Positions 1 through 4,829 of a DNA stretch of 4,829 nucleotides are shown here, piece after piece. The stretch is from a virus. Lineage: Duplodnaviria; Heunggongvirae; Uroviricota; Caudoviricetes. Each line of letters opens with the position of its first letter. Positions within the stretch are counted from its first letter, which is position 1. Position numbers and translations under genes: made by a program. The notes below the pieces were generated by a model. That model made no database searches. It worked only from the letters and a program-made list of their open reading frames with translations, and was not told where the DNA came from. The DNA is taken from the IMG/VR virus record IMGVR_UViG_2579778982_000027, one strand, 5' to 3'.

Positions 1-13
1 TTTCATACGATAG

Positions 14-45
14 TGTCCATTAAAAATGATGGACATTATTTTTGT
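14..45 (+). terminator. Candidate rho-independent terminator for plus-strand transcription entering from the left
   Basis: Perfect 7-bp inverted repeat TGTCCAT (14-20) / ATGGACA (29-35) with an 8-nt loop, followed on the plus strand by TTATTTTTGT (36-45). Stem is short and AT-rich, so weak. Confidence 0.3.
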
Positions 46-85
46 AGAGCCGGAGGAAACAGACCAGACGGTTTAAATGAGCCGG

Positions 86-190
86 TTACTCTAATGCATC
101 AGCAGGCCATGTTCCATTTACTTCATAAGTGTTTTTTAAATTAACAGCATAAAAAGCATTTTCCGAAGGGGAATAAATATATTGATTCAT
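86..190 (-). pseudogene. Tail-fibre assembly protein (Tfa) N-terminal stub, truncated after 34 codons
   Basis: Hand translation from ATG at 190-188 gives MNQYIYSPSENAFYAVNLKNTYEVNGTWPADALE, then TAA at 88-86. The FYS..NAFY...L...YE..G.WP.DA.E pattern matches the N-terminus of phage Tfa chaperones as I recall them (normally about 180-200 aa). None of the three downstream frames continues a Tfa-like sequence. Confidence 0.5.
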
Positions 191-191
191 A

Positions 192-581
192 TTATCTTCC
201 TATTGCGATAATCATAGTTCCATACAAACCATTTCCGGTTGATACTTTTAAGGTTACTGATGTCCTTGTTGTCGTGTACCCCATAAGTTTAAAGGTCGGA
301 GCAGCGGTTAATGAGCCATCTGACCATAAGGCACTAACAGCCAGTGCGCCTGAAGGAAATGCAATAGGGAAATTACCTGTAGTTCCGTTAGTGTCCGCCC
401 CATAAACATTCATCGAAAACATTTGGACAATATGACCACTTGGTAACTGAAACCAGTTTTTGCCAGATGGAAATGCAGACATATCTGGTATCTGATTTTC
501 CCCTGTTCCCACATTCCGTTTTGCCGCTTCTCCCAAACCAACGTTTAAGAAAATGCAGAGATTACGGCTAACTGGCATCAT
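192..581 (-). CDS. Phage tail-fibre protein, C-terminal variable (receptor-binding) domain fragment
   Basis: 129-aa ORF whose N-terminus carries LNVGLGEAAKRNVGTGENQIPDMSAF, the conserved constant/variable junction motif of side tail fibres in Mu/P1/e14-type invertible systems (from memory). Its 5' end faces the invertase start, as stfE faces pinE in e14. An in-frame TAA (591-593) lies just upstream, so no constant N-terminal fibre portion is attached in this orientation. Confidence 0.6.
   Translation of the reverse strand: MMPVSRNLCIFLNVGLGEAAKRNVGTGENQIPDMSAFPSGKNWFQLPSGHIVQMFSMNVYGADTNGTTGNFPIAFPSGALAVSALWSDGSLTAAPTFKLMGYTTTRTSVTLKVSTGNGLYGTMIIAIGR
528..553. other. Candidate hix/gix/cix-like 26-bp crossover site for the invertase
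   Basis: TTCTCCCAAACC-AA-CGTTTAAGAAAA: two imperfectly inverted 12-bp half-sites around a 2-bp core, with the AAACC/NN/GTTT centre typical of Hin-family sites (consensus half-site roughly TTATCAAAAACC). It lies in the codons for the junction motif (IFLNVGLGE), 55 bp before the invertase ATG. Match to consensus is partial, about 10/12 and 8/12 per half. Confidence 0.3.
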
Positions 582-608
582 CCCCGGTTTTTATTCAGGG
601 GATCCATC

Positions 609-1208
609 ATGCTTATTGGCTATGTCCGCGTATCAACAAATGACCAGAATACAGAATTGCAGCGTAACGCGCTGGAGTGCGCAGGATGTGAACTGATTTT
701 TGAAGATAAAATCAGCGGAACGAAATCAGCCAGACCGGGATTGAAAAAACTGCTCAGAACGCTATCAGAAGGAGATACGCTGGTTGTCTGGAAGCTGGAC
801 AGACTGGGCAGAAGTATGAAACACCTGATCACGCTTATTGAGGAATTGCGGGAAAAAGGTGTTAATTTCCGTAGTCTGACGGACAGCATTGACACATCAA
901 CACCCATGGGGCGTTTCTTTTTTCACGTCATGGGAGCTTTAGCCGAAATGGAACGTGAATTAATTGTAGAGCGTACACTGGCCGGGCTGGCAGCAGCACG
1001 CGCACAAGGACGCATTGGCGGACGTCGCCCGAAGTTGACAAAAGAACAACACGAGCAAATAGCGAGGCTGATTAAAAACGGTCATGACAGGAAACAACTG
1101 GCGATCATTTACGACATCGGCATATCGACGATTTATCGTTATCACCCTGTAGGCGATATACAGGCTGAAGAAACAATCAGGCAGATTCAGGAAAATGAAA
1201 ACCGCTAA
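609..1208 (+). CDS. Serine site-specific DNA invertase, Hin/Gin/Pin/Cin family
   Basis: 199-aa ORF with family hallmarks: MLIGYVRVSTNDQ (catalytic Ser in VRVST), LVVWKLDRLGRS, SLTDSIDTS, MGRFFFHVMGALAEMERELIVERT, GRIGGRRPKL and a C-terminal HTH (LAIIYDIGISTIYRY). Closely resembles Pin/Gin as I recall them. SD-like AGGGGA sits 6 nt before the ATG. Appears intact. Confidence 0.95.
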   Translation: MLIGYVRVSTNDQNTELQRNALECAGCELIFEDKISGTKSARPGLKKLLRTLSEGDTLVVWKLDRLGRSMKHLITLIEELREKGVNFRSLTDSIDTSTPMGRFFFHVMGALAEMERELIVERTLAGLAAARAQGRIGGRRPKLTKEQHEQIARLIKNGHDRKQLAIIYDIGISTIYRYHPVGDIQAEETIRQIQENENR

Positions 1209-1230
1209 TCTGACCATTAGCGGTTTTGCG
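1197..1230. terminator. Bidirectional rho-independent terminator between the convergent invertase and U genes
   Basis: Perfect 11-bp inverted repeat AAACCGCTAAT (1199-1209) / ATTAGCGGTTT (1216-1226) with a 6-nt loop CTGACC. T-run follows on the plus strand (GGTTTTG) and an A/T-rich run on the minus-strand side (TTTCATTTTC). It overlaps the invertase stop codon (1206-1208) and lies just 3' of the U stop (1235-1237). Confidence 0.6.
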
Positions 1231-1234
1231 TTAA

Positions 1235-1729
1235 TCAAAACAGCCCTTTAACGGAGCTGGCCGCGCTGTTAAGGGATGATGTGACCTTATCTTTGAAGCC
1301 GGACAGCATATCACTGAACGATGAGGATTGCAGGCGCTCCCGCAAATCCTCATCACAGCGTTCAAGAGTCAGTGAAAATTCTATCTTTTTCGCCTTACCG
1401 TAGCGATCAAACTCGGAGCGGGTCGTATTCGTTTCAGTCAGTACATACATGCCGTAAATCTGTCCGACGCCATCAATCAGAGGCCAGGGGCGTCCTGTAT
1501 ACGCCTGCGTGGTCAGCAGCGACAGCGACACTTCGCCACCTGTGATTTCAGGATAAAGCACACCAGAAAGCACGATGCGATCATCGCCTGCCCCGATATA
1601 CTGCCAGCTTGCTGAACGGTTAACGCGTTCATTTTTCACATGCCGCCAGCTTTTATTTTGCTGTAACTGCTGATGCGGCAATGTGCGCAGCTCAAAAACA
1701 AACATGCCGTAGATCATCATCATGGCCAT
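1235..1729 (-). CDS. gpU: Phage tail protein U (P2 gpU-like)
   Basis: 164-aa ORF directly after T; start region overlaps the T stop (TGA 1736-1738) with a GGAG just upstream. N-terminus MAMMMIYGMFVFELRTLPHQQL...SWRH resembles P2 gpU as I recall it, and size is typical. True start may be one of the later in-frame ATGs (1723 or 1720), which have better spacing from GGAG. Confidence 0.8.
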   Translation of the reverse strand: MAMMMIYGMFVFELRTLPHQQLQQNKSWRHVKNERVNRSASWQYIGAGDDRIVLSGVLYPEITGGEVSLSLLTTQAYTGRPWPLIDGVGQIYGMYVLTETNTTRSEFDRYGKAKKIEFSLTLERCDEDLRERLQSSSFSDMLSGFKDKVTSSLNSAASSVKGLF

Positions 1730-1735
1730 GACTCC

Positions 1736-4579
1736 TCAATCTTTATCGTAAAAACTGCCACGTCCGGCACGGTCGCGTCGTTCCAATTCTGCCCTGACCA
1801 TTTCACCGACCAGTTTCGCCAGTTCGCGGGGATTCTGCGTAACAACGTTATGCAGATGAACATGAATTTCACCGCCAAATCCGGAGACAACAGGCTCCCG
1901 GTTACGGGAAGTTGCAGGAACTGATGCCACTGGCGATCGTATGGCCTCCGCCACCGGGCGGGAGCTGGCCGCAACAACAGGGACCAGCGCCGGAGGCAGA
2001 GGAGTCGGGACCACGGGTGTGATGTTGATTGCGGAAGCAGGCTTACTGACCTGCGCAATCTTCCGCTCCTGCCACTCCCCACGAACAGCAAGTGCGCGGG
2101 GCAGGTTCTTAAAGACAATATCGCCGGGGCCAATGCGTTTTTTCGTCTCATCAACCAGCTTACCTGTGTTATCAGCAATTTTGCTGAGTCTGCGTAGCGT
2201 ACCGGTATTGCTGTCTGTGAGCGGTTTGTTGTCTTTGGGTTTATCACCTCCGGTGCCATTGCCATTTTCCACAGGCTTCGGCGGATTGATTTTCGCCAGG
2301 TCCCCCTGAAGCAAGGCAACCTTGTCCTGAAGAATGGCCGCACGCTGTGCGTCTTCGATTTTCTTGCGCGCCCTTTCAGCTTCATCCGGAAGGACGCCAA
2401 GTTTTTCAAGTATCCACGCCAGCGTATCCAGTAGCATTTTTGCAGGCATCAGAACAAGCTGTAACGCACCGCCAAGAACGTTACCGAATATCTCGCCAGC
2501 ACTGGTACATTTATCCAGCGTTTCCTTGCTGGACTCCATCGGTGACAGCAGCGATTTAAACCAGTTAAACACCTGGCTGATCCCGCTTCCGATTGCGTCA
2601 AAAACAGGACCAAACCGTTCAAAAGTTTCGCGCAACGGGGCCAGCCTTTCCATAATCCCGCTGAACACCCCGGCAAAAAATGCCCTGATGGGATCCCAGT
2701 ATTTCCAGATAAGAACGGCAGCTCCGGCAAGCGCAGCCACGATAAGACCAACCGGACTGAACAGCGCCCCGATAGCACCCCCCAGCAAAGAAACGGAACC
2801 CGTCACCATTCCCCATAGTGCTGGCAGGAGCCTGACAGCATTCATTGATCCGGTCAGGAGGGAAAAACCAAGACGCAGTTTTGCCAGTGGGCCAGCAAGC
2901 ACACCAAGAGCAAGCGACAACGAGCCTACGGTTGCAGTCACTGCCAGCAGCGCACCGCCTGCAATCAGTAGCTGGCGCGTCAGTACAGGATGGGCCTGCG
3001 CCAGTGCCGTCACCTTTGAGACCACCCGCGTTAGCCACTGCGTGACAGAACGCAGCGGACCGTCAATCAGATCTGCAATGCGGATGCGCAACCCTTCCCA
3101 TGCACTGCCGAGTGATTTCAGATCGCCGTCAAGGTTGTTGGCCATAACCTTTGCCGTGCGCTCAGCCTCACCGCGCGCGCCTTCAAGTTCTTTTCTCAGT
3201 TTAGGTAAGGAGCCGTCACCTGCCGCATCAACGAGGGCCATAAATGATGTGAAAGCCTCTTCTCCGGCAATGTCCTTAAAGAACGATACCCGGTCAACTT
3301 CCCCGTATTTGCGGGTGGCTTTATAAAGGTCGGCCAGCAAATCCTCCATCGGGCGCATTTTGCCGTTCGCATCAGAGACGGACACGCCCAGCTCTTTCAG
3401 AGCTTCTGCCGCCGCCTTTGGCGGTGATGCCAGACGAGCCAGGCTGGCACGCATTGCCGTCCCGGCATCACTTCCCCTGATACCCATATTCGCCAGTACG
3501 CCCGCCATCGCTGCGGCCTGCTCCAGCGATATTCCCAGCTTGCCCGCCACCGGACCTGCATATTTCATGGTTTCACCCAGTGCGCGAAGGTCAGTGTTGG
3601 TACGGGTAAACGCTGCGGTAAGTGTGTCACCGACCCGGTCCATCTGGTCAGCAGAAAGGCCGAACTGCGTCAGGATATTTGAGCCAATATCCGCCGTCTC
3701 GCCGAGATCCATACCGCCAGCCGTTGCCATGCTCAGCACGCCGGGAAGCGCAGCCTGAATGGCCTGCGGAGTAAAACCAGCCATTGCAAGAAATGCCTGC
3801 CCACTGGCGGCATCGCCTGCGGTGAACTGCGTTTCAGAGCCAAGTTTTAACGCCTGCTCACGCAGCGCCTTAAACTGCGGGCTGTTTTTGTCGATTCGCG
3901 TCAGTGCCTGAACGCGGGACATCTCTTTCCCGAACCCGATCGCAGGCTGCAAAAAACGCCCGGCAGCATAGCCGCCCGCAGCTGCCGCACCAATTGCCAG
4001 CGCACCACCTGTTTTCAGTTTTCCCGCTGTTTCCTGTGCGCGCGAATACCGCTCACGCGCCCGCGTTACACGCGCAAGCGCCTGCCGTTCGCGTTCAAGC
4101 TGGTTGTTGTACTGTTCGGTGCGTCTGATGGCCTGCTGGATGGTGTTATCGCTGCCTGTCAGGGAAATGCCGTGGCGTTTCAGCTCTCCGCCAAGCTCCC
4201 GCATTTTCTGAATTTCCCGTGTGCGCGATTCATTCAGGCGTTCAAGCCGGGTGCTTAACTGCTGCATCAGCTTTTGTTGTTTTTCGCTGAGCACTGTACC
4301 CGTGCGTTGTAACTGATTAAGGGCGTTAAGCTGGCGTCGTGCTTTCACGATACCCGCATCCGCTTTACTGACAGCGTCGCGGGCGCGCTCAAATGAACGC
4401 GCCTGACGCTCGAGATTTTTGATCGCCCCCTGCGTTCGCTGGATGGAGTCACCAAACTGCCCCATCAGGCGGCGTGCGTTTTCTGCAGGTCGGGTCAGCC
4501 TGTCAACGGCGCTGAAAGCGACCCGGATATCAAGAGTCTTCATTGTCTGCATTCCCGCTGCGAAGTGCCGCCCGCTCAC
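1736..4579 (-). CDS. gpT: Phage tail tape-measure protein (P2 gpT-like)
   Basis: Single long ORF (947 codons from GTG at 4579). Coiled-coil-rich charged N-terminal third, a central TQFTAGDAASGQAFLAMAGF-type tape-measure core, long Gly/Ala/Leu hydrophobic segments around residues 530-630, and position between chaperone E/E' and U. The first codon is GTG; in-frame ATGs at 4552 and 4543, the latter with GGGA about 9 nt upstream, make 1736..4543 (935 aa) a plausible alternative. Confidence 0.9.
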   Translation of the reverse strand: MSGRHFAAGMQTMKTLDIRVAFSAVDRLTRPAENARRLMGQFGDSIQRTQGAIKNLERQARSFERARDAVSKADAGIVKARRQLNALNQLQRTGTVLSEKQQKLMQQLSTRLERLNESRTREIQKMRELGGELKRHGISLTGSDNTIQQAIRRTEQYNNQLERERQALARVTRARERYSRAQETAGKLKTGGALAIGAAAAGGYAAGRFLQPAIGFGKEMSRVQALTRIDKNSPQFKALREQALKLGSETQFTAGDAASGQAFLAMAGFTPQAIQAALPGVLSMATAGGMDLGETADIGSNILTQFGLSADQMDRVGDTLTAAFTRTNTDLRALGETMKYAGPVAGKLGISLEQAAAMAGVLANMGIRGSDAGTAMRASLARLASPPKAAAEALKELGVSVSDANGKMRPMEDLLADLYKATRKYGEVDRVSFFKDIAGEEAFTSFMALVDAAGDGSLPKLRKELEGARGEAERTAKVMANNLDGDLKSLGSAWEGLRIRIADLIDGPLRSVTQWLTRVVSKVTALAQAHPVLTRQLLIAGGALLAVTATVGSLSLALGVLAGPLAKLRLGFSLLTGSMNAVRLLPALWGMVTGSVSLLGGAIGALFSPVGLIVAALAGAAVLIWKYWDPIRAFFAGVFSGIMERLAPLRETFERFGPVFDAIGSGISQVFNWFKSLLSPMESSKETLDKCTSAGEIFGNVLGGALQLVLMPAKMLLDTLAWILEKLGVLPDEAERARKKIEDAQRAAILQDKVALLQGDLAKINPPKPVENGNGTGGDKPKDNKPLTDSNTGTLRRLSKIADNTGKLVDETKKRIGPGDIVFKNLPRALAVRGEWQERKIAQVSKPASAINITPVVPTPLPPALVPVVAASSRPVAEAIRSPVASVPATSRNREPVVSGFGGEIHVHLHNVVTQNPRELAKLVGEMVRAELERRDRAGRGSFYDKD

Positions 4580-4748
4580 GCCAGCTAACCACTTCGCCGG
4601 GCGTCATCATGAAGATTTCGGCGGGCGACCAGTTAAAAATAACGGCAATATCTGCCACAAAGTCTTCTATGTGCTCAAAGCACACAACCGTGATCAGGCT
4701 TCCGTCGCCTGTTCGTTCTTCCCGCCAGAGTCCGCACCGCTCAAAAAA
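4530..4748 (-). CDS. E' extension of tail assembly chaperone (E+E' -1 frameshift product, gpE+E'-like)
   Basis: The -1 frame relative to E stays open from the slippery site to TGA at 4532-4530 (ERCGLWREERTGDGSLITVVCFEHIEDF...NADNEDS) and overlaps the start of T, as in P2 E/E' and lambda G/GT. Stand-alone initiation at ATG 4766 is not required. Confidence 0.55.
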   Translation of the reverse strand, partial: FFERCGLWREERTGDGSLITVVCFEHIEDFVADIAVIFNWSPAEIFMMTPGEVVSWRERAALRSGNADNEDS

Positions 4749-4829
4749 TTTACGGCAACCACACATAACTGAATAAAGTCACGGGATGCCATTTTTTTGA
4801 TCGTCACTTCATCCAGTCGCGGTGATGTC
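4694..4829 (-). CDS. Tail assembly chaperone E (gpE-like), 3' portion; 5' end lies beyond the window
   Basis: Frame is open from the window edge (...TSPRLDEVTIKKMASRDFIQLCVVAVNFLSGADSGGKNEQATEA) and ends at TGA 4696-4694. It is the short ORF immediately upstream of the tape-measure gene and carries the slippery heptamer. Confidence 0.6.
   Translation of the reverse strand, partial: TSPRLDEVTIKKMASRDFIQLCVVAVNFLSGADSGGKNEQATEA
4742..4748 (-). other. Slippery heptamer T_TTT_TTG for programmed -1 ribosomal frameshift
   Basis: On the minus strand the E zero-frame reads AAT TTT TTG (plus 4750-4742). The X_XXY_YYZ heptamer TTTTTTG places the -1 frame onto GAG CGG..., which is the E' ORF. Same heptamer class as reported for the P2 FETUD operon (from memory). 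Confidence 0.55.

Follow-up and report, generated by a model that had tools for sequence, protein, structure and literature searches.

Tail region of the prophage

The window, by which we mean the whole stretch of 4,829 nucleotides analysed here, was recognised from its open reading frames and Pfam matches as the tail region of a P2-like prophage, and our best explanation of the locus includes a P2-like (P88/Xuanwuvirus-like) prophage of E. coli as the host element. Positions 90-4829 run collinear, at 99.87% identity, with a prophage in E. coli JP538, and nothing to the left of position 90 matches JP538. The following features were located, with the evidence for each in brackets; L002 and L003 are unrelated E. 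coli loci and L004 is a sister assembly, all described below.

1-89, minus strand: tnpA-proximal (left) 89 bp of an ISCro1-family IS66 element, running on leftward beyond the window (identity to other copies)
1-36, minus strand: start of the gene for the IS66 accessory protein TnpA (tnpA), with the annotated ATG at 36-34 (annotated in L002, L003 and L004)
10-39, no strand assigned: hairpin internal to the IS, with a perfect core at 14-20/29-35, then a T-run at 39-43 on the plus strand (folding and IS copies)
60-89, minus strand: left terminal inverted repeat IRL, GTAACCGGCTCATTTAAACCGTCTGGTCTG as read on the minus strand (comparison with the right repeat, IRR)
86-190, minus strand: truncated tfa, 34 codons (open reading frame and alignment to the intact 147-aa allele)
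90-97, no strand assigned: target-site copy TCTAATGC, one of two 8-bp direct repeats (other copy in L004)
192-581, minus strand: alternative C-terminal tail-fibre cassette Hv' within the invertible segment, a 129-aa open reading frame with a Gp53-like_C tip domain (Pfam PF21882 at 5.5e-9)
528-553, plus strand: hix-like crossover site TTCTCCCAAACCAACGTTTAAGAAAA, right boundary of the invertible segment (motif search and switch of collinearity)
609-1208, plus strand: intact serine DNA invertase of the Pin/Hin/Gin type, 199 aa (Pfam Resolvase 6e-52, HTH_7 1e-12)
1235-1729, minus strand: gpU
1736-4579, minus strand: tape-measure protein

The FI-FII-E-E'-T-U tail block (window 1235-4829; L046 compared with L045) is inverted relative to the canonical P2 order of L045, and owing to this inversion the neighbour of the invertase in this prophage type is gpU rather than FI. 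A search for additional hix-like cores flanking the inverted FI-U block found none. The sole terminator-like site called in 1-700 lies at 570-589 on the plus strand (AACTGGCATCATCCCCGGTT then TTTATTCAGG), past the hix-like site and ahead of the start codon of the invertase.

An ISCro1-family end within tfa

A preliminary description of this DNA had noted a Tfa N-terminus that stops after 34 codons, and this observation holds: the minus-strand open reading frame 86-190 ends with a TAA at 86-88. The counterpart in JP538 is annotated as a 147-aa 'tail fiber assembly protein'. Residues 1-33 of the window's product are identical to the N-terminus of the intact 147-aa proteins of E. coli JP538 and QA-1986 630, and residue 34 is Glu in the window versus Asp in the intact allele, followed by the stop. 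Alignment to the intact stf-tfa module, which the preliminary description had proposed, showed that homology ends exactly at 89/90 and that every match to an E. coli module begins at 90. The truncation therefore lies at a junction with foreign DNA, with an IS end occupying 1-89 and tfa resuming from 90. On the minus strand the junction reads ...GCA TTA GA|G TAA CCG..., such that the G of the IS-terminal 5'-GTAA completes codon 34 (GAT to GAG) and the remaining TAA forms the stop; codons 1-33 are native.

The intact 147-aa allele matches the Pfam family Caudo_TAP (PF02413) at 1.2e-33 with 116 bits (cut-off 22.1). The 34-aa fragment searched alone gave no match in Pfam and did not reach the Caudo_TAP gathering score. 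The short open reading frame is thus a gene fragment and not by itself a member of the family, and it is presumed to be non-functional.

Bases 1-89 are identical to ISCro1-family copies at two unrelated E. coli loci (L002 and L003), one beside an Ag43 gene and the other within an RHS element. The three aligned sequences split after base 90, a T that all three flanks share by chance. The same 89 bp match thousands of places under the annotation 'IS66-like element accessory protein TnpA', and NCBI annotation names the transposase in complete copies 'ISCro1 family'. Complete copies span 2,699 bp, from GTAAGCGACTCG... to ...CCGGTTAC, and four of them are flanked by 8-bp target duplications (TGCTAATC, TCTCCATT, CATCATCA and TGTTGTCG), the first two being the direct repeats around the copies at the two unrelated loci. 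IRL and IRR (GTAAGCGACTCGTCAGAACCGTATTGATAT) match at 18 of 30 positions and both ends of the element start with GTAA; termini GTAAGCG and GTAACCG are reported for further members of the IS66 family (PMC12888890).

The window carries just the first 12 codons of tnpA. The NCBIfam profile IS66_access_TnpA begins to match at residue 13 of TnpA (1e-88), and a second in-frame ATG, at 6-4, lies closer to the start of the family profile than the annotated one. In L004, where the element is complete, its proteins matched IS66_access_TnpA (1e-88), IS66_TnpB (5e-38) and transpos_IS66 (4e-143). Three hallmarks of the IS66 family are thereby present, namely inverted repeats beginning with GTAA, the tnpA-tnpB-tnpC gene set (in L004) and the 8-bp duplication, which is seen in L004 and not in the window alone.

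The IS end also contains the hairpin and T-run that had been read as the terminus of a convergent plus-strand gene. The structure itself is real: beyond the perfect 7-bp core its arms extend to 11 nt (10-20/29-39, 91% complementary), the plus-strand RNA has a folding energy of -16 kcal/mol (z = -6.5), and TTATTTTTG comes after the structure. However, it is internal to the IS, hairpin and T-run being identical in ISCro1 copies at unrelated loci, and it does not mark the end of a plus-strand gene. The plus-strand frames that open from the window edge correspond to no gene, and the only gene annotated here is tnpA, which lies on the minus strand and runs leftward. Nor does the structure have the character of an intrinsic terminator for a convergent gene, as a simple consensus terminator scan did not call it, its stem is A+T-rich where a G+C-rich one is expected, tnpA occupies the opposite strand and the structure is fixed in the IS. 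An Rfam search of 1-700 returned no match. The annotated tnpA ATG (36-34) sits inside the 5' arm of the hairpin and the ATG at 6-4 just downstream of the 3' arm, suggesting that, in transcripts entering the IS from the co-oriented tfa, the stem may block access to the start of tnpA. Read from the other strand, the hairpin with its T-run may halt transcription out of the IS.

Sister assemblies and the origin of the junction

The tfa/IS junction of the window was found in identical form in four independent NCBI assemblies (L048, L004, L005 and L006). A look-up of the exact 34-aa product had identified it in at least four contigs, and a fifth contig was found through the 129-aa product. One of the assemblies, L048 (GCA_001265535.1), is collinear with the whole window with 4 mismatches, and its contig ends 2 nt past window position 1, which suggests that the window begins more or less where a short-read contig broke off in a repeated IS. 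The near-identical relatives have the accessions GCA_001265535.1, GCA_001285845.1, GCA_001285765.1 and GCA_001283405.1. An exact 32-mer across the junction was absent from GTDB species-representative genomes and from JGI metagenome contigs, and no complete E. coli genome with this junction, or with the one in opposite orientation, came up in BLAST searches.

The window contains 89 bp of the IS; L004 has the complete element behind the junction, and both the element and its far junction are known from this sister assembly. At the near end the sequence is GCATTAGA|GTAACCGG, which gives the 8 bp of TCTAATGC in reverse complement. The far end reads ...aaatgtcatcaggaata TCTAATGC|GTAAGCGACTCG..., that is the rest of tfa, the 8-bp repeat and the other IS end, the letters before the far-end TCTAATGC|GTAAGCGACTCG being ...caggaata. 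This far-side junction rests on one scaffold, L004, which has a single-N join elsewhere. The presence of the rest of tfa and the matching 8 bp at the far IS end points to simple transposition with target duplication in the L004 lineage and speaks against a deletion there. Most of tfa had been supposed lost; in L004 the remaining codons abut the other IS end, and the window itself ends inside the IS. What had been taken for a deletion or recombination scar is accordingly the junction left by transposition of an IS66-family element, whose 8-bp target duplication is visible in the sister assembly.

Taken together, these data make it very probable that an ISCro1-family IS transposed into codon 34 of the second, inverted tfa of an invertible tail-fibre segment. 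On this reading a tnpA-tnpB-tnpC element of about 2.7 kb inserted and, as L004 shows, duplicated the 8-bp target TCTAATGC; the IS ends at 89, tfa resumes at 90, and the terminal GTAA converts codon 34 and supplies the stop, giving rise to the 34-aa open reading frame.

A more complicated history for the genome of the window, in which the inserted IS went on to cause a deletion or inversion next to it that removed or relocated the rest of tfa, is unlikely. It draws on the fact that the window ends inside the IS with the far side out of view, and on L004, where the complete IS leads into an internal point of the tape-measure gene rather than into tfa, an order that could reflect an IS-mediated inversion. 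This join (L004, 12785-12830) is not clean, since it contains a single N and an extra base, and we did not accept the order as proof of an inversion. A second single-N join (L005:8840-8850) connects unrelated parts of the module, passing from tfa1 into the tail-fibre gene H, in both cases at mid-gene. Both joins are probably scaffolding artefacts, because repeated IS copies and mixed segment orientations confuse scaffolders. Against an adjacent rearrangement, moreover, L004 keeps the rest of tfa together with the 8-bp duplication and IRR, and an unbroken tape-measure gene is present in the window, in L048 and in L005.

Recombination by the invertase at a secondary hix-like half-site, deleting most of tfa, is highly improbable. 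An intact invertase gene does lie 420 bp away, and GGTTTAAATGAG bears a faint resemblance to a hix half-site. The preliminary description had placed such a half-site, as a poor match, at about 74-85, next to the truncation; GGTTTAAATGAG in fact sits at 70-81, inside the terminal inverted repeat of the IS, and is identical in ISCro1 copies at unrelated loci. The sequence at 70-81 did not qualify as a hix, gix or cix site, and the break that was to be compared with a crossover site is the IS terminus itself, bearing the IS66 signature of a GTAA end and an 8-bp duplication. The only 26-nt hix-like site in the window at up to 3 mismatches is that at 528-553. The identity of 1-89 to ISCro1 ends refutes the proposal of an invertase scar, and the truncation of tfa is independent of the invertase.

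There is likewise hardly any likelihood that the junction is an assembly chimera produced by joining reads across a repeat: the window does start at what coincides with a contig end in a multi-copy repeat, and sister scaffolds do contain single-N joins, but the same junction recurs in the four separate assemblies and its reciprocal carries the matching 8-bp duplication. Finally, while the exact product was called in several contigs, it would be most surprising if it were a genuine conserved small protein, as in every locus that encodes it an IS end lies directly after codon 34 and supplies the stop, relatives free of the IS read through to 147 aa, and the fragment has no Pfam match.

Insertion of the IS does not appear to have locked the segment in place. 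The hix-like 14-nt core occurs exactly twice in an intact, IS-free prophage (L046), in inverted orientation and 1.85 kb apart. The window's 26-nt site, TTCTCCCAAACCAACGTTTAAGAAAA, agrees by count at 19 of 26 positions with the Salmonella hixL sequence. Collinearity of the window with L004 and L005 switches within 527-544, at the hix-like site; the switch region in L004 and L006 is at 9647-9664. In L004, L005 and L006 the tfa/IS junction is the same to the letter, but the invertible segment lies the opposite way round from the window. In L004 and L006 the constant part of tail-fibre gene H continues into the 129-aa cassette to form a 493-aa protein, after which come the 34-aa open reading frame and then the IS. 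Because the identical junction is found in both segment orientations, at least one inversion took place after the IS arrived, when the segment had already gained about 2.7 kb. A flip that fuses the cassette to the constant part of gene H would yield the alternative fibre without its cognate chaperone, and one of the prophage's two host-range alternatives is for this reason probably disabled.

Recurrent insertions and comparison with known systems

Four separate ISCro1-family insertions were found in this cassette, including that of the window. A Mu-like prophage on a Logan contig (L007:10001-10131, ERR1512448) has a tfa allele (98.7% identity) that is broken at the very nucleotide hit in the window, here by the IRR end, GTAAGCGACTCG, indicating an independent insertion in the opposite orientation; the 34-aa product is the same because both IS ends start with GTAA. 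The two others are in complete genomes. In E. coli E7476 (L008:5088-7785) the tfa allele is a divergent one and ISCro1 sits in it some 4 codons further downstream, duplicating CATCATCA; removing the IS and one repeat restores the tfa frame. In E. coli QA-1986 630 (L009:5283-7981) the element lies in the fibre C-terminal cassette, 180 bp away from the window's site and at a position corresponding to window 267-274, and its duplication is TGTTGTCG.

These cases raise the question of target preference. We compared 40 distinct flanks of the ISCro1 left end, most of them taken from Escherichia sp. MOD1-EC7003, a strain rich in IS copies, and detected weak biases: T at positions 3-4, A at position 6 and G at position 10, counted from the IS end. 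A strong target consensus was considered as an explanation of two hits at one nucleotide and rejected, as the biases are only weak and the window's target fits them poorly. Given this weak preference, the clustering is not obviously explained by sequence alone. The 5' part of tfa in invertible tail-fibre cassettes could tentatively be regarded as a preferred landing site for the ISCro1 family, an idea we hold to be doubtful at present. If the clustering is real, it would suggest regional or structural rather than sequence targeting, for example of DNA organised by the invertase/Fis invertasome. The statistics are weakened by the exact-product look-up, which could find same-site events only, and by the general accumulation of IS elements on prophages (PMC3072379). 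A true insertion hot spot is thus possible but unproven.

The insertion target of the window lies in a near-palindrome, CTAATGCATCAG (91-102), centred on ATGCAT, which might favour insertion in either orientation. In the draft genome of MOD1-EC7003 (NZ_PTRE01; L010-L044) about 30 contig ends stop in the ISCro1 left end, a sign that the element has multiplied greatly there. The cassette itself is shared more widely: L047 (GCA_033739715.1) carries an identical 129-aa cassette and an intact 147-aa tfa by an invertase in a P1-like context (DarA, DdrB and LydB genes), which makes it common to P2-like, Mu-like and P1-like elements.

In summary, the event is an ordinary insertion of a known, abundant IS66-family element into a prophage tail-fibre chaperone gene. 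As routine insertional inactivation of a prophage accessory gene it matters little. It does account for a puzzling 34-codon open reading frame and for the contig end, it shows the hairpin and the supposed hix half-site to be features of the IS, and it warns that one host-range alternative of the tail-fibre switch is probably crippled. That the segment still flipped with an additional 2.7 kb, and that several ISCro1 hits fall in the same cassette, are of minor interest.

With regard to the chaperone, the Caudo_TAP family (PF02413) includes lambda Tfa, P2 gpG and Mu gpU. The intact allele is a 147-aa member, of which the window's fragment represents the first 33 residues; the intact protein aligns to the Pfam model over 133 residues (10-142), most of which the fragment is missing.

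ISCro1 was first named in Citrobacter rodentium ICC168 and is widespread in E. coli. It has reportedly expanded to 24 copies in C. rodentium (PMC3072379) and is also reported from the afa/dr regulatory region of ST131, at a hotspot of IS integration (PMC8764528). Its length is quoted as 2,824 bp (PMC8764528), in contrast to 2,699 bp in the complete copies examined here, and 'ISCro1 family' is therefore a safer name for our element than ISCro1 itself. In other respects the resemblance is close, as window 1-89 is identical to copies with tnpA-tnpB-tnpC, imperfect repeats initiated by GTAA and 8-bp duplications.

Invertible tail-fibre segments have a well-known layout in Mu (G segment, Gin), P1 (C segment, Cin) and e14 (P region, Pin). 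The locus described here resembles these switches in its intact serine invertase, its 26-bp hix-like site, its alternative fibre C-termini that each have their own tfa, and the occurrence of both orientations among near-identical assemblies. It differs from them in that an IS interrupts one of its two tfa genes and lengthens the invertible segment by about 2.7 kb.
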